Assembly: GCA_963745835.1 (NCBI GenBank)
Contig: CAVUZH010000013.1
Span: forward strand, 832,001-896,000
DNA from: an uncultured delta proteobacterium
GTDB lineage: Bacteria > Desulfobacterota > Binatia > UBA9968
Length of the DNA stretch: 64,000 bases
Reading direction: 5' to 3'
Shown here: positions 25,704 to 54,712 of the stretch, in pieces
How the letters are laid out: every line of letters begins with the position of its first letter
How positions within the stretch are numbered: the stretch's first letter is position 1
Program-made: the position numbers and the translations under genes
The notes under the pieces: model-generated
Seen by the model: the letters and a program-made list of their open reading frames with translations, nothing else
Told to the model about the DNA's origin: nothing
Database searches by the model: none

Positions 25704-25781
25704 TGGCGGGTCAGGCAGGATTCGAACCTGCAACAGCCGGATTTGGAGTCCGGAGCTCTAGCCAGTTGGAGCTACTGACCC
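25704..25781 (-). tRNA. tRNA-Trp(CCA)
   Basis: Acceptor GGGTCAG/CTGACCC, anticodon arm CCGGA-CTCCAAA-TCCGG, GGTTCGAATCC, encoded CCA. Confidence 0.97.
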
Positions 25782-25791
25782 CCGGTAATCG

Positions 25792-25944
25792 TTAGACCTT
25801 GATCTCTCGATGAATTGTATGGGATCGACACGAAGCGCAAAATTTCTTAAAAGAAAGTTTATCGGTGGTTTTTTTCTTGTTCTTCGTCGAGGTGTAATTC
25901 TTTCGCTTACATTGGTCGCAAGCAAACCCTACGATATCCCGCAT
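25792..25944 (-). CDS. rpmG: 50S ribosomal protein L33, Zn-binding type (50 aa, not in the ORF track)
   Basis: Read by hand: MRDIVGFACDQCKRKNYTSTKNKKKTTDKLSFKKFCASCRSHTIHREIKV. Confidence 0.97.
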   Translation of the reverse strand: MRDIVGFACDQCKRKNYTSTKNKKKTTDKLSFKKFCASCRSHTIHREIKV

Positions 25945-25967
25945 GAGTGCGCCCCCCCTTGCCCAAG

Positions 25968-27159
25968 TTACTGGATGATCTTCGTGACAACTCCGGCGCC
26001 AACGGTCCGACCACCCTCTCGAATTGCAAACTTCAACCCGTCGTCCATAGCGACAGGAGTAATGAGCTCGATCTCCACATTGATGTTGTCGCCGGGCATA
26101 ACCATCTCTGTTCCTTCCGGCAGTTTCACGACACCGGTAACATCGGTTGTGCGGAAGTAGAATTGCGGCCGGTATCCGTTAAAAAACGGCGTGTGTCGAC
26201 CACCTTCTTCTTTCGTTAGAACATAAGCCTCGGCATTAAACTTTGTGTGCGGGGTTATGCTCGCGGGCTTGGCCAAAACCTGACCTCGCTCAACCTCTTC
26301 ACGCTTGGTGCCACGTAGCAACACCCCAATATTATCGCCGGCCCGGCCTTCGTCCAGAAGCTTGCGGAACATTTCGATCCCGGTCGCTACCGTTTTTTGC
26401 GTCGGCTTAAATCCGACAATTTCAATTTCTTCTCCGACCTTGACGACGCCGCGCTCGACTCGGCCGGTTACAACTGTGCCTCGACCGCTGATTGTGAAAA
26501 CGTCCTCAACCGGCATGATAAATGGCTTGTCGACGTCTCTGGTGGGCTCTTTGATGAAAGAATCAACAGCTTCCATGAGCTTTATGATAGACCCTTCACC
26601 TATGTCGGAGGCGTCTCCCTCTAAAGCCTTTAGAGCACTACCGATCACTATCGGAACTTCGTCGCCCGGGAAATTTATACTTCGAGAGCAGCTCTCGAAC
26701 TTCGAGCTCTACCAGTTCTAGCAATTCCTTGTCGTCAACCATGTCCGCTTTGTTAAGGTAAACAACTATACCAGGAACACCGACTTGGCGCGCTAGCAGG
26801 ATATGCTCGCGGGTTTGCGGCATGGGGCCGTCGGCGGCTGAAACCACCAGGATCGCTCCATCCATCTGCGCCGCTCCAGTGATCATATTTTTCACGTAGT
26901 CGGCGTGTCCAGGGCAGTCGACATGTGCATAATGACGCTTGTCAGTCTCATACTCCACGTGAGCAATATTAATCGTAACGCCTCTTTCTCTTTCTTCCGG
27001 CGCCTTATCGATTTGATCATAGGCGAGAAACTGCGCTTTGCCCTGCTTGGAGAGAACCTTCGTGATGGCCGCAGTTAAAGTAGTTTTACCGTGGTCTACG
27101 TGACCGATGGTTCCGATATTAAGGTGCGGCTTTTTGCGCTCAAACTTTTGCTTGCTCAT
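25968..27159 (-). CDS. tuf: Elongation factor Tu with one extra base near 26665-26676 (probable sequencing error)
   Basis: [18 protein letters not shown] in the first frame; domains II/III in the second; span 1192 nt = 397 codons + 1. Confidence 0.96.
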
Positions 27160-27222
27160 CTCTTCCTCCTGATTGATTTGCCAATCAATTGACTTTATCG
27201 TGCTCGAAAATAAACGGCACCA

Positions 27223-27295
27223 AGCCCAGGAGCGGGATCGAACCGCTGACCTCGTCCTTACCAAGGACGTGCTCTACCGACTGAGCTACCTGGGC
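27223..27295 (-). tRNA. tRNA-Thr(GGT), CCA not encoded
   Basis: GCCCAGG acceptor, GTCC-TTGGTAA-GGAC anticodon arm, GGTTCGATCCC. Confidence 0.96.
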
Positions 27296-27375
27296 AAATC
27301 AGTCGATTACTCTTGGCTGATGGCCTAATTTAAATGATCGGACCACTGCTATTTTGCCACCGGCCATATGCGAAT

Positions 27376-27451
27376 TGGAGCGGGAAACGGGACTCGAACC
27401 CGCGACCCCGAGCTTGGAAGGCTCGCGCTCTACCAACTGAGCTATTCCCGC
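27376..27451 (-). tRNA. tRNA-Gly(TCC)
   Basis: GCGGGAATAGCTCAG...CTTCCAA...GGTTCGAGTCCC...TCCA. Confidence 0.97.
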
Positions 27452-27457
27452 CAAAAA

Positions 27458-27542
<85 letters not shown>

Positions 27543-27628
27543 GATTATCAGCAGTATGTTTGCCGCAATCCCACTGCGACTCCCGAACAGCAAATCCTCG
27601 CCGCCAGGTTAACATCGGAATGCTTGGC

Positions 27629-27703
27629 TGGAGCTGGCGATAGGACTTGAACCTACAACCTGCTGATTACAAATCAGCTGCTCTGCCGTTGAGCTACGCC
27701 AGC
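27629..27703 (-). tRNA. tRNA-Thr(TGT)
   Basis: GCTGA-TTTGTAA-TCAGC, GGTTCAAGTCC, CCA end. Confidence 0.97.
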
Positions 27704-41880: not shown

Positions 41881-43299
41881 TCAGCTGTTCAGGTGAAATA
41901 CCACCATCTTGAGCTCGGTCATTTCTTCCACCGCATACCTTGGACCTTCTTTGCCAAAGCCTGAGTCCTTAAGTCCGCCGTAAGGCATGAGATCCACGCG
42001 CCACTGCGGGCCCCAGTTAACATGCAGATTGCCGGCTTCGGCTTCGCGCGCGAATTTCATGGCCCATTCCACATTTTCCGTAAAGATGCCCGCTGCCAAA
42101 CCGTAAATACTATCGTTGGCAAGCGCAATGGCCTCTTCGATGTTTTCAAACGGAGTCACCGCCACCGCCGGACCGAATAGCTCATCGCGCGAGATGCGCA
42201 TATCTGGCGTAACATCGGCCACCACTGCTGGCATGTAGATCGCGCCGCGCCGACCACCACCGGCCGCCAAGCGCGCACCGCCGGCGACCGCTTCTTCGAT
42301 CCAGTCTTCGACGCGGACCGCCTCGCTCTCCTTTACCATCGGCCCGACTTTTGATTTTTCATCGAGTTGATTGCCGGTGCTGAGTGCTTCAACTTTGGGT
42401 TTCAAAGCATCAAGGAAGTCGCCGTAAACTTTTTTTGCCGTAAGCACCCTTTGAGTCGAGATGCAGGTTTGCCCGGCATTGCCGTAACCGGTCGTCGCCA
42501 CCGCGGCCGCCACTCTGTTTAAATCGGCGTCAGGCATGATGATAAGCGGGCTGTTGGAGCCGAGCTCCATCGTGACTTTTTTTATTCCCGCCATTCGGCA
42601 AATTCGATCGCCAATTTCACGGCTGCCGGTAAATGTGATTTTTCGCACACGGCGGTCTTTGACCAGAGTATCACCGATCTCACCGCCCGACCCTGTGATG
42701 CATTGAATCCCTTCCGGCGGGAGTCCGGCTTCCAAAAGAATTTCCGTGAGCTTCAAGGCCGACAGCGGCGTATCGGAAGCCGGTTTGACGATCACCGAAT
42801 TTCCCGCCGCGAGCGCCGGACCGACTTTGTGACAGACGAGATTCAATGGAAAATTAAACGGCGCGATGGCTGCAACGACACCGCAGGGCACGCGTAGCGT
42901 GAATCCTAACTTCTTACCCCCGGTAGGATCCGCATCTAGCGGTACGGTTTCCCCGTGTAAGCGCTTGGCCTCCTCGGCAGATCCCATCATAGTTTCCACC
43001 GCTCGGCCTGCCTCTCCCCGCCCCTCGGCGATGATCTTTCCTTCTTCTTTAGATATTGTCCGGCCCAGCTCTTCGTTGCGCGCCGCCATCAGATCCGCCG
43101 CAGTGCGCAAGATTTTCCAGCGCTGATAGCTGGTAAGTTTGGCCATCACCTTGGCTCCACGTTCGGCATAAGCCAGCGCCTTTTCAACATCGCTCGCATC
43201 CGCTTTGGGAACCGTATCGACGACGGAATTATCGAAAGGGTTTTTGACCTCGATCTTGTTGGCCTTATCAACCCAGCGGCCTTCTAAAAAAATCTTCAT
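41881..43299 (-). CDS. NAD(P)-dependent aldehyde dehydrogenase
   Basis: PFNFP, FTGS, ELGSN, GQTCIS catalytic Cys, ELFGP. Confidence 0.95.
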   Translation of the reverse strand: MKIFLEGRWVDKANKIEVKNPFDNSVVDTVPKADASDVEKALAYAERGAKVMAKLTSYQRWKILRTAADLMAARNEELGRTISKEEGKIIAEGRGEAGRAVETMMGSAEEAKRLHGETVPLDADPTGGKKLGFTLRVPCGVVAAIAPFNFPLNLVCHKVGPALAAGNSVIVKPASDTPLSALKLTEILLEAGLPPEGIQCITGSGGEIGDTLVKDRRVRKITFTGSREIGDRICRMAGIKKVTMELGSNSPLIIMPDADLNRVAAAVATTGYGNAGQTCISTQRVLTAKKVYGDFLDALKPKVEALSTGNQLDEKSKVGPMVKESEAVRVEDWIEEAVAGGARLAAGGGRRGAIYMPAVVADVTPDMRISRDELFGPAVAVTPFENIEEAIALANDSIYGLAAGIFTENVEWAMKFAREAEAGNLHVNWGPQWRVDLMPYGGLKDSGFGKEGPRYAVEEMTELKMVVFHLNS

Positions 43300-43408
43300 G
43301 AGAACAATCTCCCTTAATGAATAATGCCGAAACTAAGATATGAGGCGAACAGTCTTCGTTCTCTTAGGTTCAGACGTCACTAGTCCTTGCTGTGGCCAGC
43401 GCCGCGGT

Positions 43409-43453
43409 AAAAACTACGGCCGCCGCGCGATTGGCGAGACCAATGCGGCCGTA
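43409..43453 (-). terminator. Probable terminator after yggT
   Basis: Minus strand TACGGCCGC-ATTGG..CCAAT..-GCGGCCGTA followed by GTTTTT. Confidence 0.45.
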
Positions 43454-43523
43454 ACAGCGGGTCGAGCATTCGATTCACGCGAATATCGGCCGTTTAAAGA
43501 TTTCACTAAAGCATCCCTGGCAA

Positions 43524-43823
43524 TTACCTCAATGTATAAGCAAGGTCGTAAAGCGACCGAACCAGAAATCCTTTGATAAACCAAATGGCCAAAGAAACAA
43601 CGATCGGTGAAAGATCAAAACCGCCTGCGAATAAAGGTAATCTCTCACGAACTTTTTCGAGTACTGGTTCTGTCAAGTTGTAAATGAAGCGAACGATCGG
43701 GTTATATGGGTCTGCATCGATCCACGACATCACCACGCGGGCAATCAAGATCCATAAGTAAGCCCAGAGCAAGAAGTCCAGAACCTGGGCCGTGGCAATG
43801 ATAAAATTAGCAAGAATAAACAT
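43524..43823 (-). CDS. yggT: YggT family membrane protein
   Basis: SWI...DPYNP...TEP...DLSPI. Confidence 0.93.
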   Translation of the reverse strand: MFILANFIIATAQVLDFLLWAYLWILIARVVMSWIDADPYNPIVRFIYNLTEPVLEKVRERLPLFAGGFDLSPIVVSLAIWFIKGFLVRSLYDLAYTLR

Positions 43824-43828
43824 TCAGG

Positions 43829-44521
43829 CTACGTTCTTCTCGGACCAAACAAGGCTGTGCCAATTCGCACAATGGTTGCGCCTTCTTCAACAGCAATCAG
43901 ATAATCATGCGTCATGCCCATCGATAGCTCCCTAAGGTCGACGTTCGGCAATTTCAAACTGTGCAGTTCATCTCGCAACCGGCGCAGGTCACGAAAGTAA
44001 GGCCGAGTCTCTTCAGAATTTTCGCGAAAAGGCGGAACAGTCATAAGCCCTTCGATGCTGAGATGGTCGAGCTCGCCGATAGTGCGTAAAAGCTCCTCGA
44101 CTTTGGGCTTGGCAATCCCCGACTTGGTCTCTTCGCCGCCTATATTGATCTCAATGAACGCCCGCACTCGGACATTTCTTTTTCGGCCTTCCTTATCCAG
44201 CGCGCGCGCCAATTCAGCGTTATCGAGAGACTCAATGACGTCGAAGATTTCCACTGCCGCTTTTGCCTTGTTGCGTTGCAAGTGACCAATCATGTGCCAT
44301 TCGACGTGATCGGAAAGACTCTTTTTTTTGAGGCTCGCCTCCTGAACGTAATTTTCCCCAATGAGCAAGACACCAGCCATGATGGCCGCTTCGATTGCTT
44401 TGATATCTTGTGCTTTGGCGGCCGCAAGTATTTTAACATCGCGCGGGTCTCGTCCCTTCGAAACCGCGGCCCGCCTGATCTGTTCAGCGATCTCTCGATG
44501 GTTCGCCGCCACATCCGCCAT
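43829..44521 (-). CDS. yggS: PLP homeostasis protein YggS (start ATG 44521)
   Basis: GENYVQE, WHMIGHLQRNK, LSMGMT, RIGTALFG. Confidence 0.96.
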   Translation of the reverse strand: MADVAANHREIAEQIRRAAVSKGRDPRDVKILAAAKAQDIKAIEAAIMAGVLLIGENYVQEASLKKKSLSDHVEWHMIGHLQRNKAKAAVEIFDVIESLDNAELARALDKEGRKRNVRVRAFIEINIGGEETKSGIAKPKVEELLRTIGELDHLSIEGLMTVPPFRENSEETRPYFRDLRRLRDELHSLKLPNVDLRELSMGMTHDYLIAVEEGATIVRIGTALFGPRRT

Positions 44522-44659
44522 AAGGTGAAAATGCTTATCACATCCACCTTTGTAAATCACTCCGGTCGTTACAAGTGAGGGTGAAAAGGAGCCGTCAAAG
44601 GCGAGTTTGTCACCTCCTTCTGATTACGCATCGAGTGCCAGATATTATATCTGCAACCG

Positions 44660-45115
44660 TCATTGGTTTTCAGGTTCCTGAACGCAATCAGGCGCACGGC
44701 TCTCGAGGATCAAACTACCCAGAGTACAGCGGATCGAGGTAAAGTTGAGCCGCACCGGCCAACCGTTATCGGCAAGAAGGGCATCAACATCAAACACGAG
44801 CATCCCGTTTCGATTTACGATATTCGTTCCAGAAGTAATACGATTCAGAAGATACTTTTTTAAGAAGCCTATACTTATAAATCCTGCTCTCACTCGCTCA
44901 ATGCGCGCGCCGAGCTTGCCTTCGGAAACTGATAATTGCCAGAGCATCTGGAAGGGAATCCAGATAAATTGTTGATAAATCCCCGTGACCCGAACGCCTT
45001 CCGGCGTGACAGCGAGATCAACATCACGGATAGCGTCGGGCCAGAGGAAAATTCGAGATGCCAGTTGGTTTAGGTCCGCGTCGCTCACGATAAGCTTCAA
45101 TAACTGTATCTCCAT
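44660..45115 (-). CDS. Hypothetical protein
   Basis: 151-aa ORF filling the gap, protein-like composition; family not recognised. Confidence 0.6.
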   Translation of the reverse strand: MEIQLLKLIVSDADLNQLASRIFLWPDAIRDVDLAVTPEGVRVTGIYQQFIWIPFQMLWQLSVSEGKLGARIERVRAGFISIGFLKKYLLNRITSGTNIVNRNGMLVFDVDALLADNGWPVRLNFTSIRCTLGSLILESRAPDCVQEPENQ

Positions 45116-45416
45116 GGCGCTAAACTAGCAGGCGCGGTCGCAATACTACACAGATCTGATTGCATCTCGGTTCGCGGGAGATGGAAGCGCCGAGAACGGT
45201 CAGAAGAGACCTAGCGTAAACCGGCTTATTTCTGATCGTGTTTTCACCAACGGCTGCTCGCCATCCAAGGAGTCTGACGGACCGCAAATCAAAGCACCCA
45301 TGAAAGCTAGTTCATCAGATTCGAAATGAATCAGCTGCAGCCGAACCGAAAACCAGTGATGTCTTTTAACTGAAACACAATAAACGAAAGGTTATTGATT
45401 CCCCTGTAAAATCTTC

Positions 45417-45432
45417 GGGCACCGCATTTGCG
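45417..45432 (+). promoter_or_regulatory. Possible sigma54 -24/-12 promoter
   Basis: GGGCACCGCATTTGCG with canonical GG-N10-GC spacing, just upstream of the NTF2-like gene. Confidence 0.4.
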
Positions 45433-45445
45433 TCCGCGATTCCGG

Positions 45446-46042
45446 ATGGCTGCGGAAGTAAAAGTCTCTTACAAATCATGGGCGGCGTTTGCGCTGTCGG
45501 CTGTTTTCTTATCAGCTTTCGCCTTTGTCGTTACACAGCAAACCCGCAACCCACCGGCAATTGAAGAAGCAAAGACCACGGCTCCTGCCAAACCGTCGGA
45601 TGAGACTCCTGAGGTTGCGGGCCAGGGCAAGGACGTGGCGCCGCAAATTTGGGAACCTGCGCCTAGAACCGACGAAGCTCCCGAGTCCACTGTGAAAGAA
45701 TTGGTGCAGGCATGGAATAAGGGCGATCCCAACAAGATCGCTGAACTGTTTTTGCCCGATGGTGTGCTGTTTCTTCCCACCGGCGCGGAAATCAAATCTC
45801 GTGAGGAAATCAAGAACACGATAGCCAAACACCACGACGGGATGCTGAAAGAGACAAAACTAACTAATAGGATCGAGGGGGTTTCTACCGATGGCGAGAA
45901 GGCGATCGTTAAAGGCAACTACCAATTAGACGGCATAAAGGTACTGGGGTTTAGCACGAGTGCAACGGGCAGCTATGAATTTCACGGAACCAAACGAGAT
46001 GGTCGCTGGCTGATTGCCAAAGCTGAAGTGACTTGGGAGTGA
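45446..46042 (+). CDS. Membrane-anchored or exported NTF2/SnoaL-like (DUF4440, SgcJ/EcaC-like) protein
   Basis: N-terminal TM, Pro/Ala-rich linker, AWNKGD...AELF..DG...DGRWLI. Confidence 0.75.
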   Translation: MAAEVKVSYKSWAAFALSAVFLSAFAFVVTQQTRNPPAIEEAKTTAPAKPSDETPEVAGQGKDVAPQIWEPAPRTDEAPESTVKELVQAWNKGDPNKIAELFLPDGVLFLPTGAEIKSREEIKNTIAKHHDGMLKETKLTNRIEGVSTDGEKAIVKGNYQLDGIKVLGFSTSATGSYEFHGTKRDGRWLIAKAEVTWE

Positions 46043-46126
46043 CGGGGTCGGCCTCACGGAACATTAACGCAGAGCGGAGCAATCGGCTGCTTAACGATTC
46101 TTGCTCGATTGCTCCGCTTGGCCCTG

Positions 46127-46522
46127 TTAACTGACTGGACTGCGCACACTACAATGCTTTCTGTGGTTCTCGAGATCCGAGTGCAAACTAAATTTACTAT
46201 CGCAGAACTCGCAACTGTAATCACCCATGGGTTCATTCATGATGCCGCGATCGTACCGGTCGTGGCCTTCCAGTTTAACCATTTTGTTATAGACGCCGAA
46301 GATTAACCAGGTGGGCACCCACTGCGCTATGAAATTACCCCACTTCCCCCGGCCGGTGATCTGACAGAACAAGGAAAGCGCCATGGCTCCAACCGCCACG
46401 CCCAGGTAGGCTGAGGAGGGTATAGCCGCCGTATACGATTCGATATTCTTTGTGACTCGATCTTCACTTTCGATGTTATTCGGTAAACCATTCGTTTGCG
46501 TCGGTACATCATACGTTTCCAT
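46127..46522 (-). CDS. Small membrane protein with a C-terminal C2H2/C2HC-like zinc finger
   Basis: Hydrophobic segment, QW.P..LI.GVYNK.VK motif, then YSCEFCDSKFSLHSDLENHRKHC. Confidence 0.75.
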   Translation of the reverse strand: METYDVPTQTNGLPNNIESEDRVTKNIESYTAAIPSSAYLGVAVGAMALSLFCQITGRGKWGNFIAQWVPTWLIFGVYNKMVKLEGHDRYDRGIMNEPMGDYSCEFCDSKFSLHSDLENHRKHCSVRSPVS

Positions 46523-46570
46523 TAATCATGCCTCCGTTTGCTAATCGCGCATGGTCGTTTTCGGAATACT

Positions 46571-47017
46571 TTAGCCTGCCTTGCGCTCCCGGTTTCCTTT
46601 GGCGGCCTCCAGTTCCGCTCCGAGTTGCTGCAGCTCGGTCGCGCTAAAAAGCTTCCGCACCTTCGGAAACATCTTTCCTTCCTCCTCTTCCTCCGCATGA
46701 TGCTCGACGTTTTCTTTGAGCACCTTGAGCTTCGGCTCGAATTTCTCACTATCCTTTGACAGATTATCCATTTCTCGCAGCAGAGTCTTAACTTGTTTAT
46801 GCTCTTCGATGGATTCGAGAACCATGTCTTTGAGCTCTTCGTTTTTCTGCACCGCGGGATAGAACACGTTTTCTTCGATTCGCGCATGAGTTTCTAATTC
46901 AGTTTTGATTTTTTCGAAGATGTCGGTGCGTTCTTTGCCTTGTTCCGCGCTTTCCGCCTTCTCCAGCAGCTCTTTAACTTTCGCGTGATCCTGTTTTAAG
47001 AGTTCGAGCGCATCCAT
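46571..47017 (-). CDS. Hemerythrin/HHE domain protein (start ATG 47017)
   Basis: LLKQDH, HARIEE..FYP, EEH, HHAEEEE...FP; AAGGAGG SD. Confidence 0.92.
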   Translation of the reverse strand: MDALELLKQDHAKVKELLEKAESAEQGKERTDIFEKIKTELETHARIEENVFYPAVQKNEELKDMVLESIEEHKQVKTLLREMDNLSKDSEKFEPKLKVLKENVEHHAEEEEEGKMFPKVRKLFSATELQQLGAELEAAKGNRERKAG

Positions 47018-47047
47018 TGTTTGTTCCTCCTTTGCCGTGGGGTTTAA

Positions 47048-47063
47048 CGCAAGAGCAAGGCCA
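47048..47063 (-). promoter_or_regulatory. sigma54 -24/-12 promoter for the hemerythrin gene
   Basis: Minus strand TGGCCTTGCTCTTGCG, canonical spacing, 30 nt before the ATG. Confidence 0.6.
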
Positions 47064-47241
47064 GGCTTCGCCAAGAGCCGGCTGAGATAGACTTGTATGA
47101 GATGTGAGACATGCAATACGCGCTTGTCTCAGAATTGAATGCCATTGTGATGATTGAGGTCATCAGATATTCGTATGCTGCGTCCAAAGAGTTGAAGACG
47201 ATCACGGAGTGAATAATCCTCCGACCGTGAGCGGTAGAACT

Positions 47242-48030
47242 ATGTCGTTCGAATATCTTCCCATCATGGCTCAGGCCGGCGCGCCTAAGCCGCCGCGCGT
47301 TCTAGTCCCGCCATCAAAGCAAGCTTGGTCGCCTGTCACCAAGCCAGTCAACCAATCAACAATTGCTCTTTTGTCCAGCGCAGCCCTGCGGCTGCTAGAT
47401 CAGGAGCCCTTTGTGCCGCGCGAAGACTTGAGCTATCGGCGCATTCCGGCTGATGCCGCTGGCGCGTTTATTATCGATCACCACTCCGGAATCGGCCGGG
47501 TACCCAAACAGGATCCCGAAATTGTTTTTCCACGCACCGCGCTCGCCTCTCTGGCGCAGCACGGCACCATCGGCGAAATTTCGCCGTTTCATTTCTCTTT
47601 CATGGGCGGCGTTCGCCGCCCGCAAGAAATCGAACATGAGCTGGCTACCGCGATTGCAGATGATTTAAAAAAGATGGCGGTGGATCTCGCCTTGCTGGTG
47701 CCCTACTGACCATTTTGCCATGAGACCGTCGGTCTCATCGCCCACGTTATCGAGGGGCGCGGCATTCCAACCCTGGTAATCGGTACCGCTCTAGACATAA
47801 TGATCAAGGTGACTCCACCGCGAGCTGTTTTTGTCGATCATCCGGTAGGCCGGACCTTCGGTCCACCACATGATCGCGATCGCCACGAAGCGGTTCTAAA
47901 AACCGCGCTCAATGAGATACCCAAATTTACCGAGCCCAACCAGATCCACGATTTACAATGCCGATGGCAAATCGACGGCAGCCGGGCTTGGGAGGCGGAG
48001 CTTCGGGCTGAGATGCTGCGCGACCGTTGA
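47242..48030 (+). CDS. PrdB/GrdB-like selenoprotein, Sec at TGA 47707-47709 (UxxC motif)
   Basis: GrdB-family N-terminal half (D.SYR.IP, QDP..VFP, HFSFMG); frame continues through the TGA as VPY-U-PFCHETVGLIAHVIEGRGIPT and joins ORF 47800..48030 in frame. Confidence 0.88.
47717..47741 (+). promoter_or_regulatory. Bacterial SECIS element
   Basis: ATGAGACC-GTC-GGTCTCAT perfect 8-bp stem; loop begins GU, 18 nt after the UGA. Confidence 0.8.
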
Positions 48031-48087
48031 CAGCGCAGCTTAAACATAATAATTCCCGCAGACTATAATCTCACTAGAGGAGAGTTT

Positions 48088-49110
48088 ATGTTCAAGTTCC
48101 TGGGCAAGGGTTTTTCGGCGCTTATACTTAGCTTCCTATTGGCCGTCCCGGCGGGCGCCGCGGCTCCTTATTATGAGGGCAAGGCAATTAGGGTGATCGT
48201 GGGTTTTTCCGCTGGCGGTGGTTTCGACACCTACTCTCGTGTGATTGGACGTCATATCGGCAGACATATACCAGGCAATCCCTCGATTGTAGTCGAGAAT
48301 ATGACGGGAGCCGCCAGTCTGGTGGCGGCTAATCACGTCTACAAGGTCGCCAAGCCCGACGGATTGACAATTCTAAATTTCCACGGCAACCAAGTGATCA
48401 ACCAGATCATCGGCAAGCCAGGCATAGAGTTTGATGCTCGTAAGTTCGAGTACATTGGTATTCCGACGCAGGACAATGTTGCGTGCGCGTTTACCAAAGC
48501 CAGCGGCATCACCTCGGTCGATGCGCTGAGAAATGCCAAGACGCCGGTCAAAGTCGGCGGCGTAGCACCCGGAGATACGACTTACAATACAGCAAAGCTG
48601 TTAATTGCCGCGCTGAAACTGCCGATTCAGCTGGTCGCCGGTTACAAAGGCACGGCTGAAGTTCGCCTCGCCGCCGAAGCTGGAGAAGTCGCCGGCGGTT
48701 GCTGGCAATGGGAATCAATCAAGTCTATCTGGCGTCAGGGACTTGATTCGGGCAATGTCTCCGTGGTTTTGCAAGTCAATCCCAAACCCCATCCGGAGTT
48801 GCCGAACATAGCCAATGCCATCGATTTCGCTCCCAACGAAAATAGCAAGCAGCTTCTGAAATACGGCGGCCATGATCCTGCCGCGATAACCAGACCCTAC
48901 GCACTCGGGCCGGGAACACCCAAAGACCGTGTGCAGGTCTTGCGCAAAGCATTTGTCGATACTCTCAAGGACCCGGAGTTTCTCGCTGACGCAAAAAAAT
49001 CGAGGCTGGACACTGATCCGCTGACCGGCGAGGACATCGAGAAAATCGTCACCGCGCTCTTCAAGATGGACTCCAGCCTGGTAAGCCAATTGAAAGAGAT
49101 CTTGCAATAA
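48088..49110 (+). CDS. Bug/TctC-family tripartite tricarboxylate transporter substrate-binding protein
   Basis: Signal peptide, GGGFDTYSR, VENMTGA, KPDGLT, GYKG. Confidence 0.92.
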   Translation: MFKFLGKGFSALILSFLLAVPAGAAAPYYEGKAIRVIVGFSAGGGFDTYSRVIGRHIGRHIPGNPSIVVENMTGAASLVAANHVYKVAKPDGLTILNFHGNQVINQIIGKPGIEFDARKFEYIGIPTQDNVACAFTKASGITSVDALRNAKTPVKVGGVAPGDTTYNTAKLLIAALKLPIQLVAGYKGTAEVRLAAEAGEVAGGCWQWESIKSIWRQGLDSGNVSVVLQVNPKPHPELPNIANAIDFAPNENSKQLLKYGGHDPAAITRPYALGPGTPKDRVQVLRKAFVDTLKDPEFLADAKKSRLDTDPLTGEDIEKIVTALFKMDSSLVSQLKEILQ

Positions 49111-49139
49111 AGACAACTCGAGGTAAACGGGGAGGTCTT

Positions 49140-50171
49140 ATGGCTCGAACGCCGATGATGTTGATCATGGGTTTGCTAACCCTTTCGTATTCCAGTTTTA
49201 CGTATGCTCCCGCGCACGCGCAGGATCCGTTCTATAAGGGCAAGACCGTACGAATCATCGTCGGAGCCTCTGCCGGCGGCGGTTACGACACTTACTCCCG
49301 CACGATTGCCCGCCATATGGGCAAACACATCCCCGGCAATCCCACCTTCGCTGTGGAAAACATGCCAGGAGCCGGATTTCTGATCTCTGCCAACCACATG
49401 TACAACGTGGCAAAGCCCGATGGACTAACTATCGGTCATTTTATCGGCGGTCTTTTCTTGCAGCAGCTTTTGGGTAAGCCGGGAGTCGAATTCGAGTCGA
49501 CCAAGTTCCAATTTATCGGCGTGCCGGCGCAAGACAATTACATGTTAGGTGCGGCAAAGAGCACGGGCGTCACGACCATTGAACAATGGTTGTCTTCCAA
49601 GACCCCGGTTAAGCTGGGCGGGGTTGGCGCAGGTTCGGCGACAGATGACATCCCAAAGGTTTTGGCGGCGACCATCGGCCTACCGATGCAGCTGGTCAGT
49701 GGCTATAAAGGAACTGCCGATGTGCGACTCGCCTTCAACAGCGGCGAGATCACCGGCATCTGCAACTCCTGGGAATCCTTCAAAGCCACCTGGAGTAAGG
49801 AGCTTAGTTCAGGCGACGTGACGATCGTATTACAAAATATTGCCAAGCCGCACGCGGAACACCCGAAACTGCCCTTGGCCATCGATTTCGCCAAGACCGA
49901 GGAAGCAAAAAAACTGATCATCGCTTTGGTCCACAGTGTCGGGCCGACGGCGCGGCCGTATGTGCTACCTCCTGGGACGCCAAAAGACCGGGTGCAGATC
50001 CTGCGCCGCGCCTTCATGGAAACCATGAAGGATCCGGAATTTCTGGCAGATGCGACCAAAGCCAAGCTCGACATCAATCCCCTCGATGGCGCTGAACTGG
50101 AACGCAATGTCCATGAGGTGTTCAACCTGGACAAGTCGCTCATTCCGCGGGCTAAAGAGATTTTGAAGTAG
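49140..50171 (+). CDS. Bug/TctC-family substrate-binding protein (second paralog)
   Basis: Signal peptide, GGGYDTYSR, VENMPGA, KPDGLT, PPGTPKDRV..LR.AF. Confidence 0.92.
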   Translation: MARTPMMLIMGLLTLSYSSFTYAPAHAQDPFYKGKTVRIIVGASAGGGYDTYSRTIARHMGKHIPGNPTFAVENMPGAGFLISANHMYNVAKPDGLTIGHFIGGLFLQQLLGKPGVEFESTKFQFIGVPAQDNYMLGAAKSTGVTTIEQWLSSKTPVKLGGVGAGSATDDIPKVLAATIGLPMQLVSGYKGTADVRLAFNSGEITGICNSWESFKATWSKELSSGDVTIVLQNIAKPHAEHPKLPLAIDFAKTEEAKKLIIALVHSVGPTARPYVLPPGTPKDRVQILRRAFMETMKDPEFLADATKAKLDINPLDGAELERNVHEVFNLDKSLIPRAKEILK

Positions 50172-50535
50172 GCTGCAACGACTATGTCATCGTGGATGTC
50201 AGGTGGCGCTGCGAATCCTAATCAGACCCGGCAGAGCTGTTCGTTATGAATCCCGGAATCTAGCGATAGGGCTGTTGTTTTCGGTACTGCCCATCGACTC
50301 TGTCGATCCAAAGTATTGGAAACGACGGTCGGAGCAAAGTTCACTTGCTAGGCAGCCTGGAATCCTGGCACAAAAAAACGTCCAACCGTCATCTCATCGA
50401 GACTTGACAGAAGCTAAATTCACCGGCTGCCTGTGTGGCTAGACTTCAAAAAATTTTAATGAGCATAAGTTTCAGCGTCCCGCCTAGAACGATGCTGATC
50501 GCGGACCAGCCTCATGGACTTAGGCTTGGTGCAGG

Positions 50536-50970
50536 TTAGAATCCGCAGTCTGCCGAGGATATGTCGATGGTCGCGATGTGTTGCTTGTCTTTGTCGTAAT
50601 ACGCATAACTCAGAGTCACGCCGTGTTTCAATAAGTCGTCACGAGTCTCAGGGCGATTGCAAACGCCTTGCGTGACCCGCTCTTTCGCCCCGGCGGCGAA
50701 CTTGGAGGCATTCAACTGCGAAACCGAATAACTCACCAGCCGGTAGTTATAAGTCAGCATCCCCTCTGTACCGACAGCAGCTAGCAATTCGGTCTCTTTG
50801 TCGATCATAACCGGCACACCGCGATTAATTTGGTCGGCCAGCCGATTAAGAGAAGACTGGGACCGCGGGTTTTCTCCATCGGAAGGTTTCGGGACTGCCC
50901 ACCAGATCGCAGCGCCGAACAAGAGCGCCGCAACAACCAAGGTAAATATTTTCGTCCGTGACATGATCAT
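50536..50970 (-). CDS. Membrane-anchored periplasmic protein, possibly AspS/PA3611-like fold
   Basis: N-terminal TM; P.MID..T, VC...R..LL..GVTL.Y.Y, C-terminal Cys; fold call from pattern memory. Confidence 0.55.
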   Translation of the reverse strand: MIMSRTKIFTLVVAALLFGAAIWWAVPKPSDGENPRSQSSLNRLADQINRGVPVMIDKETELLAAVGTEGMLTYNYRLVSYSVSQLNASKFAAGAKERVTQGVCNRPETRDDLLKHGVTLSYAYYDKDKQHIATIDISSADCGF

Positions 50971-51200
50971 CTGAAATCCAGCTGTACTTTAATCCTGTGA
51001 CCTTGCTAGATGCGATTCGGTGCTCGGCAGGCGCCGCAATCCGAAACCCATATACAACCATGGAACGAAAAAAAACAAACATGGGAACACCAGAGGCATC
51101 GGGGGGATTGGCGCATGAGCGAAATCGCAGGCACCTGAGCAGTGCGATGCCGACTGGAAGGCCGCCCAGTACGTCGTCGCTTTGAGCCGATAATCGGACT

Positions 51201-51236
51201 AAAAAAAACGGGGAACAGCATAAAGCCATTCCCCGT
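51201..51236 (-). terminator. Intrinsic terminator of the porin gene
   Basis: Minus strand ACGGGGAATGGC-TTTAT-GCTGTTCCCCG followed by a T8 run. Confidence 0.85.
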
Positions 51237-51261
51237 CCCGCACTAGGAGGAGGCAATCGTC

Positions 51262-52479
51262 CTAGAACGTATATATTAGCTGGCCGGCGAGGGTCGTCTG
51301 ATTTTTATCGGCTGATGATGCGCCCTTCCTATAGAACGTTTCATCAGACCAATCCTGCCGAACCTCAACTCGGCCCAAGAACATTTTGGTAAATTTGTAA
51401 GCACCGGTCAGTGTAACTTCGGCGACCGTGTTGTTGGCATGGGTTCCGCTAAAGTTGCCGCCCAAGCGAGCACCATCCCGATCGTTGAAAAACTCGCCTC
51501 TCAAGGCCGTCGTTAAACGATCAGTCCAACCGTATGACGCAATACCGGCAAGGCCTTGCCATACGGCGTCCCTCGTTCCACCTAAGGAGGCATTTTCTTC
51601 CCTGCCATAAGTATACTCAAGAATCAGAGCGACAGGGTCAGCAGGCTTATAAGTGGCTACGTGACTCATGGTAAAACGCTGATCGCCGGTATTGCTGAAT
51701 TGCTCGGGACCGTAGATCACGTTGCTGGCTAGCGCGAATTGTTCCGTAGGGGTAAACCCAAGGCCCGCCATAAACGACGGCTGCCGATTGTTGTCATGAG
51801 GATTATCCCAACCCGTCACCACTCCAGCATTAACCGACAATGTTTTCAAAATCGGGTAGCTAAAGAGCGCTCCCACATGGCGCAGCGGGATTGCATAATT
51901 GAACAGGAAAGACCTCGAAATATTGTCGTTGTAAGCTCCAGGATTGGGAAGAATCTCAGTGCCCAGGGTGGTGACGAAAAGTCCTCCTTTGACGCTAATA
52001 CCTGCGCCGACAGGAATCGTCGTTGTCAGGTACGCTTCGCGCACTTCAGCCGAAGGCTCATCGTGAAAATTGTGACCCCACAGCGTGGCCTCTCTCAGAA
52101 GCTCGCCCCCGCGGCCGAAATCGCCGGAGAGGCGAAAACCAACGCCCCAATCCTTTTCAGGTTTCTCCACCGCCACATGAAAGTAATTGAAAACGAGTTT
52201 GTTGTAATCCTTATCGAAGTATCTGCCGGAAATGTTTCTCGGGTTCTTCGGGTGATTCGAACTCCACTGGTAACTAGTATCGAGAAACCCGCTGATGCCG
52301 ATTCCCAAAGCGCCATCTATAGCGGATTTGCCATCCGCAATGTTTTTATCGAGCACTCCAACGCTATCGTCCAAGCTCAACCAGCCGGGACCTAAGGGCT
52401 TGTCTTGCGCCTGTATCGCCGGCGGCTCAAAAGCAGCGATAGCCACAGTAAGAATCAGTCCAAGTAAACTTTTCTTCAT
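51262..52479 (-). CDS. Outer-membrane beta-barrel porin (BBP2/DUF1597-like; start ATG 52479)
   Basis: Signal peptide, ISGFLD, N.SRSFLF, GWD, amphipathic strands, C-terminal YTF. Confidence 0.85.
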   Translation of the reverse strand: MKKSLLGLILTVAIAAFEPPAIQAQDKPLGPGWLSLDDSVGVLDKNIADGKSAIDGALGIGISGFLDTSYQWSSNHPKNPRNISGRYFDKDYNKLVFNYFHVAVEKPEKDWGVGFRLSGDFGRGGELLREATLWGHNFHDEPSAEVREAYLTTTIPVGAGISVKGGLFVTTLGTEILPNPGAYNDNISRSFLFNYAIPLRHVGALFSYPILKTLSVNAGVVTGWDNPHDNNRQPSFMAGLGFTPTEQFALASNVIYGPEQFSNTGDQRFTMSHVATYKPADPVALILEYTYGREENASLGGTRDAVWQGLAGIASYGWTDRLTTALRGEFFNDRDGARLGGNFSGTHANNTVAEVTLTGAYKFTKMFLGRVEVRQDWSDETFYRKGASSADKNQTTLAGQLIYTF

Positions 52480-52543
52480 CAAGACACTCCTATCTATTAC
52501 GACACATATTCGAACGTAAGTTACTCGATCAAGTCCCCGAATG

Positions 52544-52559
52544 AGCAATAAAAATGCCA
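52544..52559 (-). promoter_or_regulatory. sigma54 -24/-12 promoter of the porin gene
   Basis: Minus strand TGGCATTTTTATTGCT, canonical spacing. Confidence 0.75.
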
Positions 52560-52711
52560 TTAAGCGGTCACCACTAACTCCATAAAATCAAATGCAACCC
52601 TCACTTCTAGCTAGATATGCACAGAGTTTGTTCAAAGCGATGATTATTTGCTAGGCATTTGCCTGCACATCGAGGCCAGCATCAATCTCAGTAACTCATG
52701 CTGACGCGACT

Positions 52712-52936
52712 TCAAGCAATAATGACGTTACCTAGAAATAGAAGACTCGCTTCGTCTTGCACCCTCACGGGACCGCCGAGAACAATTAGCGCCTTAACCT
52801 CGTTCTCAACACGCTGTGGGCGTTCTCTCCATGAAACAAGCGGATAACCCGATAACCTCCGCCTGTCGCTCCAAGATCTCAGCGAGTACACCCAGATCTT
52901 CGAAAGGATCGTTTTGGAAACCAAGATTTCTTCCAT
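52712..52936 (-). pseudogene. Decayed 5' fragment of a class I glutamine amidotransferase
   Basis: Consecutive motifs in shifting frames: MEEILV / QNDPFEDLG..AEILERQ / GYRVIRLFHGE / ALIVLGGP..V.DE; no convincing GICLG half. Confidence 0.65.
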
Positions 52937-53101
52937 CACACTGAGTTTGAATGATTTGATGCTGGATCTCAGATTACATCCGAGACCTCGAGTAGCATGG
53001 GAAAGACCAGCGAAAAATTACTTGATCGAACTCGAATCTAAATACTTCAGCAAAACAAGCCGCGCTCCGGAAGATCCTGATGTCGAATCTCACACGAGCT
53101 C

Positions 53102-54712
53102 TTATAATGCGGCCTCTTTTGAAAGCGCAGGCTGGTGTTCGCGCACCACCGCTTCTCCTGAGGCTCCGGTGGTCGTGCCCGCGATGATCGTGCTGCTTCT
53201 CGAGGTTACCGTCACAAAATCGGGGTATGCGACATTGCCATGTTCATTGACATCGAGCCCTTCGATCTCCTCTTCCGTCGACACTCGAACGCCAAGAGTC
53301 GCATCGATGATCTTCCAGACGATGAGCGAAAACGGGAAAACGAAAACTCCCACGCCCACTACACCGGCAAGCTGCGCCATCAAAAGTCCAGCACCACCAC
53401 CGAATAGCAGACCGTTCCCTGTGGTGTTGGGAGTAAATTCGGCCTGCGCAAATAAGCCAACGCAGATCGTCCCGAAAATGCCGCAAACTAAATGCACTGA
53501 AGTCGCTCCAACGGGATCGTCTATTTTGATTTTGTCAAAAAATAGAACCGATAATACGACCAACGCTCCGGCAACCAAGCCGATTATTAGTGAGCTTGGG
53601 ATACTGACAAAGGCGCACGGCGCCGTGATCGCCACGAGTCCAGCCAACGCGCCGTTAAGAATCATCGTTAGATCTGGTTTACCTAGAAGCATCCAGGCTG
53701 TGATGGACGCCGAAATAGCCGCTGCGGCTGCCGCCGTATTGGTTGCTACCGCGATTCGACCGATGGCTCCGGCGTCTGCCGCCATAGTGCTGCCGGGATT
53801 AAACCCGAACCAGCCGAACCAAAGAACGAATACACCGATGGTTGCCAATGCGATACTGTGACCCGGCAGTGGCAGCGCCTTTCCATCTTTACTGTATTTG
53901 CCAATGCGCGGGCCCAGAACCATCGCTCCAGAAAGGGCAGCCCATCCGCCCACGGAGTGAACCACTGTCGATCCTGCAAAGTCGAACATACCTAATTTCG
54001 CCAGCCAGCCTCCGCCCCATATCCAGTGGCCTACGATCGGATAGATAAGACCCACCATTAAGAAACTGAAAATATAGAAAGATCCAAACTTGATTCTCTC
54101 CGCCACCGCGCCGGAAACAATCGTCGCTGCAGTGCCGGCAAATACAAGCTGAAAGAAGAACTTGCTCCACAATGGGACGCCGGTCCAATTAATTGATGAA
54201 TAGACACCCTTATAAGCATCCCCCATCGCCGGGCTGTTGTCGGCGCCGCCGACAAACCATAAACCCTGAGTGCCGAAAAAAAGATTGCCATCGCCGAACA
54301 TGAGACCCCAACCTAGAACTAAAAACGCAATCGACGCCGCGGCGAACACAACAAAATTCTTCGCCAGAATCGTCACCGCGTTTTTGGCGCGGCATAGGCC
54401 GGATTCGACCGTTGCAAAACCGAGGTTCATAAAAAACACCAGCATGCCGGCAATCAACACCCACATGGTGTCTATCGCGACTTTAGCGCCGCCGATTTGT
54501 TGCAGCAGTCCTTGAGTAAACTGCGCCGGCGTGGCGCCGGGATCTTCTTTTTTGGCTTCAACACCTGGAGCCGCGGACGAGGTCGCCGGGGTTTCTATTT
54601 TAGTTGGCTCCGGCGGAGCAGGGTTTTCTTGCGCCGAAAGCGAAGTCAAAAGAACAATTCCCACGACCAAGCTCAATGAGGCATACACGAACATTTTTTT
54701 CACCTTCTTCAT
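53102..54712 (-). CDS. amtB: Ammonium transporter
   Basis: FQLVFA, SGAVAER, DFAGSTVVH, WFGWFGFN, NGALAGLV, DDPVGATSVH (twin His). Confidence 0.97.
   Translation of the reverse strand: MKKVKKMFVYASLSLVVGIVLLTSLSAQENPAPPEPTKIETPATSSAAPGVEAKKEDPGATPAQFTQGLLQQIGGAKVAIDTMWVLIAGMLVFFMNLGFATVESGLCRAKNAVTILAKNFVVFAAASIAFLVLGWGLMFGDGNLFFGTQGLWFVGGADNSPAMGDAYKGVYSSINWTGVPLWSKFFFQLVFAGTAATIVSGAVAERIKFGSFYIFSFLMVGLIYPIVGHWIWGGGWLAKLGMFDFAGSTVVHSVGGWAALSGAMVLGPRIGKYSKDGKALPLPGHSIALATIGVFVLWFGWFGFNPGSTMAADAGAIGRIAVATNTAAAAAAISASITAWMLLGKPDLTMILNGALAGLVAITAPCAFVSIPSSLIIGLVAGALVVLSVLFFDKIKIDDPVGATSVHLVCGIFGTICVGLFAQAEFTPNTTGNGLLFGGGAGLLMAQLAGVVGVGVFVFPFSLIVWKIIDATLGVRVSTEEEIEGLDVNEHGNVAYPDFVTVTSRSSTIIAGTTTGASGEAVVREHQPALSKEAAL

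Follow-up and report, generated by a model that had tools for sequence, protein, structure and literature searches.

The best-known relatives of the gene treated here are the selenocysteine (Sec)-containing B subunits of the Stickland-type reductases. According to the available part of a study on Clostridioides difficile, PrdB of D-proline reductase has a mass of 25.7 kDa and its Sec at position 151; the enzyme requires a pyruvoyl protein, PrdA, whose gene is in the same cluster, D-proline bound to PrdA is attacked at its alpha-carbon by the Sec, and a U151C variant is inactive (PMC11229817). Counts of PrdB-type selenoproteins in environmental bacteria go back to 2005, and the occurrence of such proteins outside the clostridia is already in print: the accessible text of two marine surveys gives 42 PrdB-type selenoprotein genes for the Sargasso Sea (PMC1088965), and 235 Sec plus 110 cysteine (Cys) forms for the Global Ocean Sampling expedition (PMC2398784). 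The gene described here lies at 47242..48030 of a 64,000-nucleotide stretch (the window, contig CAVUZH010000013.1, positions 832,001 to 896,000) from the genome of an uncultured delta proteobacterium (GCA_963745835.1). Based on sequence comparison, it is very probably intact and encodes a cytoplasmic member of the GrdB/PrdB selenoprotein superfamily, with an in-frame UGA read as Sec, and its product would act as a nucleophilic reductase other than the B subunit of D-proline reductase proper.

The reading frame and conservation of its UGA codon

The open reading frames (ORFs) 47209..47709 and 47800..48030 are in frame with each other, and the sole stop between them is TGA 47707-47709. Translation with this TGA read through gave 262 residues from the ATG at 47242 (...LALLVPY-U-PFCHETVGLIAHVIEGRGIPTL...), which bears out an earlier note on this DNA that had described two ORFs split only by this codon and a product of about 262 residues. 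Around the Sec the product reads LALLVPY-U156-P-F-C159-HETVGLIAHVIEGRGIPTL; the Sec thus stands in a UxxC motif (U156-P-F-C159), a membership feature of PrdB. The ATG was favoured over the GTG at 47209 because all orthologs begin M/V-x-[FL]-x-Y-L-[PS] at this point; in one ortholog (L022) an in-frame stop is located two codons upstream of the start. The terminal stop of the gene is a second TGA.

47242..48030, + strand: complete coding sequence of a PrdB-like selenoprotein, 262 codons plus TGA stop at 48028-48030; match to TIGR04483; 20 orthologs colinear over the full length
47707..47709, + strand: in-frame UGA predicted to be read as Sec (U156); TGA column in orthologs, Cys in distant homologs, U of paralogs L041, L043 and L044
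47716..47718, + strand: codon for Cys159, the partner of Sec in UxxC; invariant in the protein alignment (A1), with CxxC in 67 of 102 distant homologs

To collect orthologs, the genome of the window and 40 related ones were searched in six frames, which yielded 20 full-length sequences ranging from 93% down to 44% identity. Each contained exactly one TGA within the match, in the same column in all 20, and the surrounding sequence was VPY*PFCHETV, TPF*PYCHETV or VPY*PYCHETV. A scan of public genomes, in which each bacterial or archaeal species was represented by one genome, yielded 61 loci; the scan finds only proteins carrying the motif P[VA]GRTFG[PR]P[HRG] and so defines the clade, not its outer limits. 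The TGA was found in the same column in all 60 loci holding the region (PY*PFCHE in 36, PY*PYCHE in 20 and PF*PYCHE in 4), the remaining locus (L127) ending before it. As the relatives are not independent, these counts are descriptive. The protein is better conserved beyond the UGA than before it: in alignment A1, 32 of the 106 residues after U are invariant, compared with 31 of the 155 before it, and the most conserved part of the protein is encoded by the 30 codons between the TGA and the ATG at 47800.

A profile search of 1.84 billion representative proteins returned 1923 more distant relatives at E <= 0.001, and column states were read from the best 150. Among the 102 of these that are at least 200 residues long, the U column was occupied by Cys in 78 and by Trp in three, and a complete CxxC was present in 67. 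Another 17 of the best 150 stop at profile position 155 or 156, at most one residue from their own last residue; these short relatives are further Sec forms clipped at the UGA. Within the same genome, U156 aligns with the U of the PrdB-like paralog L041 and of the GrdB-like L043 and L044 (the row of L042 was left out). Both comparisons proposed in the earlier note, of the UGA column with Sec or Cys in homologs and of the TGA among related genomes, therefore came out in favour of Sec, and the alignments show UGA 47707-47709 to be a sense codon maintained by selection.

The SECIS-like hairpin and the selenocysteine machinery

The selenocysteine insertion sequence (SECIS) of bacteria is a stem-loop just after the UGA, with a G early in its apical loop, roughly 16-37 nt from the UGA. 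One such element was identified in the gene.

47720..47738, + strand: SECIS-like hairpin, 8-bp stem of 47720-47727 with 47731-47738, loop GUC at 47728-47730

The arms ATGAGACC (47720-47727) and GGTCTCAT (47731-47738) pair perfectly over 8 bp around GTC. The hairpin starts 10 nt past the UGA. The distance from the A of the TGA to the G of the loop is 18 nt, as had been reported from the sequence beforehand. The position of the GUC loop, its invariant G and U and the constrained stem agree with the general description of a bacterial SECIS. The 71-nt stretch 47700-47770 folded at -24.5 kcal/mol (z = -2.13), and 7 of 200 shuffled sequences were at least as stable; the fold energy alone is only moderately unusual. 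An Rfam scan of 47500-48100 at E <= 10 returned three chance-level matches, none of them related to SECIS.

The strongest argument for the hairpin comes from the synonymous sites of its codons, and together with the conservation of the UGA this pattern is decisive. Across the 60 loci the stem codons are fixed as GAG (60/60), ACC (59/60) and CTC (59/60), and glycine is encoded by GGT in all 40 loci that have it, the other 20 having AGT for serine. The loop codon is variable (GTC 35, GTG 21, GTT 3, GTA 1). Flanking codons vary freely: the glutamate ten codons on is GAG in 27 and GAA in 33, a later threonine uses four codons and a leucine six. In an alignment of 61 sequences (A2), 91.3% of the cells of the 8-pair helix were paired, as against 27-40% when the partner strand was slid, and loop positions G22 and U23 were invariant. 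Pair 15-31 was C-G in 20 sequences, U-A in 16, U-G in 2 and unpaired in 22; pair 21-25 was open in 20 sequences of one clade, which leaves a 7-bp stem with the loop CGUGA. In the paralog L041 an 8-bp stem with a GUC loop occupies the same place, both partners of two pairs being exchanged, and a 3-nt loop beginning with G at position 22 from the U of the UGA is common to the five GrdB/PrdB-type genes of the genome. The covariation is real but thin. The check on stem covariation suggested earlier thus revealed some compensatory change together with constrained synonymous sites, and the hairpin is under constraint at the RNA level.

All four components of the Sec machinery named for a search in the earlier note were present above their cut-offs. 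The tRNA-Sec (74.2 bits, cut-off 47; anticodon tca by ARAGORN) is encoded on the window's own contig (C13), and C22:65479-70161 contains selA, selB and selD next to one another, at 608.6, 394.3 and 383.4 bits. The genome bin is 97.1% complete. Of the 41 genomes searched, 39 have a selA gene over the cut-off, among them every one of the 20 with an ortholog; the 41 include two unpublished genomes (G012 and G018), both without an ortholog. Elsewhere in the genome UGA serves as a stop, as seen from the gene's own terminator and from nearby ORFs of normal length under translation table 11.

As a separate observation, the selD gene (G000:C22:69235-70161, L018), located just after selA and selB, itself contains one in-frame TGA (...SVKAAG*AAKLGP...) and encodes a Sec-containing SelD.

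The gene was said to be hidden from annotation, and the databases agree: of the 120 closest proteins in a collection of 5.8 billion, 119 are stumps of 155-156 residues that cover 59% of the query. The sole full-length entry among them (P0003) has W at the Sec column, and C-terminal pieces have been deposited separately (e.g. P0164, P0177 and P0255). The stumps are named "D-proline reductase (dithiol) PrdB" by JGI and, for the two that carry NCBI names, "hypothetical protein".

Two alternatives to Sec insertion were weighed against these data. If the TGA were a real stop, the locus would be a pseudogene or two small genes (47242..47709 and 47800..48030), which is what the gene callers, with their stumps and separate C-terminal entries, have in effect proposed. 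A nonsense mutation would not persist in 60 of 60 loci down to 44% identity, however, and the codons just after the TGA are the most conserved, with Cys replacing the U in 78 of 102 uninterrupted homologs. This better conservation downstream of the UGA excludes both the pseudogene and the two-gene version, which are refuted as far as comparison goes and are left with a negligible probability. It is also highly improbable, if slightly less so, that the UGA is read as Trp, Gly or Cys through a changed genetic code or suppression. The Trp at the Sec column of P0003 and of 3 of the 102 distant homologs would fit such a reading, but the gene's own TGA end and the normal table-11 ORFs around it show that UGA is ordinarily a stop here, the genome has all of the Sec machinery, and the Trp entries are most simply gene calls that were made under a table with TGA as Trp. 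The preferred explanation, one intact selenoenzyme gene split by annotation, as the earlier note had supposed, is strongly supported by the conservation of the TGA and of the sequence downstream, the Cys column, the constraint on the stem and the Sec machinery.

Family placement and possible function

Based on searches with the NCBIfam models, the best match of the protein was PrdB (TIGR04483; E 4.2e-33, 114.8 bits), with residues 25-239 aligned to profile positions 16-231 of 238. GrdB-type models matched residues 88-204 only, at 24-26 bits. The Cys-containing homologs likewise scored 112-178 bits against TIGR04483. Since the 114.8 bits are far below the equivalog cut-off of TIGR04483, the protein is called PrdB-like and is a PrdB-like branch of the superfamily, not an equivalog and not D-proline reductase proper. 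The description as PrdB/GrdB-like given in advance consequently stands for the end-to-end homology to PrdB and fails for the curated cut-offs of PrdB, GRDB and TIGR01918.

The protein resembles PrdB of C. difficile and Clostridium sticklandii in size (262 residues, as compared with the 25.7 kDa given in the available part of the source), in homology over the whole length, in the UxxC Sec near residue 150-156 and in the SECIS hairpin after the UGA. Unlike PrdB, it has no adjoining prdA, solute-binding protein genes take the place of prd genes, and neither PrdA nor PrdC was found in the genome. The hosts differ too: PrdB belongs to amino-acid-fermenting clostridia, whereas the records here are titled Candidatus Binatia and the DNA occurs in soil and rhizosphere runs. 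With GrdB, GrdF and GrdH of the glycine, sarcosine and betaine reductases (PF07355, TIGR01918) it shares the Sec column and the motif ...T/Y-U-x-x-C/S...E..G-I/L-P, and the geometry of the hairpin after the UGA equals that of the GrdB-type genes in the same genome. GrdB proteins are about 435 residues long and encoded beside grdE-type genes, however, and only some 115 C-terminal residues match here (89-203 on TIGR01918 profile positions 280-396 of 431). The Cys proteins annotated as [quoted passage not shown] (e.g. P0145) belong to the same fold family and have CPxCH at this position; they differ in having Cys for Sec, are 33-36% identical or less, and some reach 380-415 residues.

Genes of the GrdE/PrdA family (PF09338) were sought as possible partners. 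None was found within 41881-53861 of the window, nor next to the selenoprotein gene in any of the 12 Pfam-annotated neighbourhoods; the five PF09338 genes of the genome are all on contig C3, beside GrdB-like genes. The gene is therefore "stand-alone", as it had been called, with respect to its neighbourhood. TIGR04480 (PrdA) gave no match at E <= 0.001 in the genome, a weak negative as control genomes were also without a match, and the best match to PrdC scored 44.4 bits against a cut-off of 490.

A model of the protein was built with AlphaFold2 from a 20-sequence alignment and showed an alpha/beta fold (mean predicted local distance difference test score 85.7, predicted template modelling score 0.89). 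In it a strand (149-153) runs into a helix (157-172) that is capped by Sec156. Invariant residues also occur at a distance from UxxC in alignment A1, e.g. D79-H80, R98, H117, G203-R204 and F206-G207. No signal peptide was apparent by eye, without a predictor. Among solved structures, phmmer with the protein gave no match at E <= 1, the profile of alignment A1 gave chance-level matches only (E 0.4-1.7), and a Foldseek search of the PDB was empty at E <= 0.001. With VIA-align, run on 48,161 chains, the best Z was 8.2, for LacI-type or periplasmic-binding-like, short-chain dehydrogenase/reductase and CheY-like alpha/beta folds, where the background of the tool is Z 7-8. No informative structural relative was thus found, and a new fold is not claimed.

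By analogy with established bacterial Sec decoding, SelB carrying Sec-tRNA(Sec) would bind the hairpin through its apical GU and bring Sec to the UGA, while the UGA at 48028-48030, where a hairpin of this kind is absent, would end the protein. The homology to PrdB and GrdB suggests that Sec156, at the N-terminus of a helix and right after a beta-strand, would be the nucleophile of a reductase, that Cys159 would resolve the intermediate to a selenenyl-sulfide, and that a thiol-type electron donor would reduce the latter again.

Two other functions were considered. As a general thiol/selenol-disulfide oxidoreductase, the protein would use UxxC to shuttle electrons in the manner of thioredoxin-like proteins, with no covalent bond to carbon. 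The position of UxxC at a helix N-terminus after a beta-strand is usual for redox CxxC motifs, a gene for a substrate-activating partner is absent nearby, and plain CxxC occurs in 67 of the 102 distant homologs taken from the best 150 of 1923. Even so, the homology extends over the whole of PrdB, whose Sec attacks carbon according to the available part of the source (PMC11229817), the many invariant residues far from UxxC suggest a specific substrate pocket, and the paralog L041 keeps the Sec with Tyr for Cys, which is ill-suited to a pure dithiol shuttle; a simple electron shuttle is accordingly judged unlikely, though it deserves some weight. Considerably less likely is a genuine B subunit of a D-proline (or glycine/betaine-type) reductase that finds its pyruvoyl partner among the GrdE/PrdA-family genes of contig C3. 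PrdB is the best family match, five PF09338 genes adjoin only three GrdB-like genes so that partners would be to spare, and a gene of the ornithine-cyclodeaminase/pyrroline-2-carboxylate-reductase family, whose chemistry is proline-related, is found close to the ortholog in 17 of 20 loci of one clade (clade C, below). The 114.8 bits fall far short of 300, however, PrdA is without a match in a genome that is 97.1% complete (a weak point, the controls being silent too), PrdC is not over its cut-off, and PF09338 adjoins the gene in 0 of 12 neighbourhoods.

Several findings weigh against an intact PrdB-like selenoenzyme and were set beside the evidence for it. The selenium content of the protein is predicted by comparison. 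Of the eight stem pairs, five are without variation and two others fail to form in 22 and 20 of the 60 loci, respectively; because the invariant peptide E-T-V-G/S-L is encoded by the same nucleotides, the stem is in part conserved at the protein level. The hairpin predicted for selD is of another shape, with the loop CCU, and the organism has no single SECIS consensus. The genome bin has an estimated contamination of 9.33%, and selA, selB and selD are on a different contig from the window; contamination and possible indels leave a TGA common to 60 other genomes unaffected. Curated cut-offs were missed for TIGR04483 (114.8 bits, or 108.9 by genome search, for an equivalog cut-off of 300), for Pfam GRDB (PF07355, 15 bits for 22) and for TIGR01918 (25.3 for 65.45), and the chemistry could hence differ from that of PrdB and GrdB. 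The gene context differs between clades and says little on the substrate.

With these points included, the intact selenoprotein gene remains the preferred reading. It is a sound but fairly ordinary addition to a known selenoprotein superfamily, and leaves the knowledge of Sec decoding and of the superfamily unchanged. It nevertheless marks a PrdB-like clade without a pyruvoyl partner, the substrate of which is worth finding. Only tentatively, and with the odds rather against it, this Binatia clade may represent a PrdA-independent, stand-alone Sec/Cys reductase, possibly working with an Amidohydro_2 protein, with which soil bacteria would reduce or cleave a carboxylated compound taken up from outside, perhaps an N-heterocycle or a cyclic amino acid. 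If true, a lineage in which Stickland-type metabolism is not known would have a so far undescribed catabolic activity that depends on selenium.

The same genome encodes a second PrdB-like selenoprotein, L041 (G000:C14:594133-594900; also L065:6001-6900), which is 35% identical and has a TGA in the same column, with the motif U-P-A-Y-H and Tyr in place of the resolving Cys. This gene also has no prdA neighbour; it adjoins genes for a LysE-type exporter, a BrnT-domain protein, NMT1-like binding proteins and a glyoxalase-type protein. Three genes for GrdB-like selenoproteins of 436-455 residues, with one in-frame TGA each, were located at G000:C3:673743-676325, 759875-762658 and 1194803-1203229 (L042-L049). 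The five GrdE/PrdA-family genes adjoin them, and two of the three have U-G-T-S, with Ser at +3. Together they form a set of Stickland-type reductase genes, and the records of related genomes bear the title Candidatus Binatia.

Gene neighbourhood and distribution

The genes around the selenoprotein gene were compared by clustering the ORFs of 61 loci (the window and 60 others), which fall into clades A (37 loci, including the window), B (4) and C (20). As the ORF sets of these G+C-rich genomes hold spurious overlapping frames, only Pfam-annotated families are quoted.

46571..47116, - strand: hemerythrin-domain gene, divergent, a neighbour within the genus only (PF01814, 62.6 bits; also in L055 and L056)
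48088..49110, + strand: gene for a TctC-like (Bug family) solute-binding protein, 57 nt downstream (PF03401, 21.5 bits, below the cut-off of 27)
49140..50171, + strand: second gene for a TctC-like solute-binding protein (PF03401, 31.1 bits, over the cut-off of 27)

The 340-residue TctC-like family was present in 28 of the 37 loci of clade A, two of four in clade B and four of 20 in clade C. The first TctC-like product has a signal-peptide-like start, as judged by eye without a predictor. If it is indeed a signal peptide, no contact between this product and the selenoprotein would be expected. Of the 24 loci of clades B and C, 22 have an Amidohydro_2 gene on the same strand that ends about 30 nt upstream of the selenoprotein gene (e.g. 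L059:6821-7978, L060:6821-7978, L061:4689-5873 and L062:3488-4915); no NCBIfam model names it. Clade C adds a gene of the ornithine-cyclodeaminase family (17/20 loci) and one for a 748-residue protein of xanthine-dehydrogenase type (16/20), and genes of glyoxalase type and gentisate-dioxygenase-like genes also recur near the orthologs. When NCBIfam was run on the neighbours only YggS exceeded its cut-off, which was too little to name a pathway. Taken loosely, the surroundings indicate the catabolism of an imported carboxylated compound: such a substrate is suggested by the TctC-type genes in the window's clade and by the Amidohydro_2, ornithine-cyclodeaminase and xanthine-dehydrogenase types in its sister clades.

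The Amidohydro_2 protein is a candidate functional partner in its own right, and the window's clade is without it at this locus. Upstream, on the minus strand, lie genes for a YggS-family pyridoxal-phosphate protein (43829-44560; 187.6 bits, over the cut-off) and an aldehyde dehydrogenase (41881-43299), 2.7-5.4 kb from the selenoprotein gene; both are kept at the locus within the genus (L055, L056) and not beyond it.

A promoter and terminator scan of 46900-50600 gave counts no higher than in shuffled sequence (4 as compared with 2.6, and 5 with 4.4), and nothing between the selenoprotein gene and the TctC-like gene. Short contigs on parts of the gene were found in four of four soil metatranscriptome runs, one of them covering 47694-47957 at 99% likeness. 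Two contigs from these RNA libraries, spanning 47960-48189 and 47964-48135, run from the gene into the TctC-like gene, a weak sign. None of the contigs has 31 letters on both sides of the UGA; as assembled pieces that may derive from carried-over DNA and in part stem from relatives (90-95% alike), they show neither transcription nor read-through, and stretches that they leave uncovered carry no information.

Nearly all of the 61 public loci come from records titled Candidatus Binatia, delta proteobacterium, Syntrophobacter-type or Thermodesulfobacteriota metagenome-assembled genomes (MAGs). DNA of the window was detected in soil, rhizosphere and winery metagenomes, where 14 runs from five studies contained at least half of the sampled words. 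The protein resembles the marine-metagenome homologs called "Proline reductase PrdB" in being PrdB-type, in carrying UxxC and in occurring outside the clostridia, as far as the available parts of the two surveys describe them (PMC1088965, PMC2398784). Unlike the present loci, which come from soil-type MAGs, those parts give counts and describe no partner-less clade. A literature search for a partner-less PrdB-like clade or for selenoproteins of Binatia, which did not cover the sequence lists in the survey supplements, found nothing. With this gene an uncultured soil lineage gains a well-supported selenoprotein, beside its several GrdB-like selenoproteins and a Sec-containing SelD. It corrects a recurrent annotation error as well, given that 119 of the 120 closest entries end at the Sec codon, and the JGI label "D-proline reductase PrdB" is not supported by the evidence collected here.

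Elsewhere in the window, the tuf gene for EF-Tu (25968-27264, - strand) is split across two overlapping frames, ORFs 26638..27264 and 25968..26648. The apparent frameshift near 26640-26660 could be an assembly indel or mark a broken copy, and the assembly may hold indel errors. The split tuf gene is flanked by genes for tRNA-Trp, Thr, Gly, Tyr and Thr (25704-27703).

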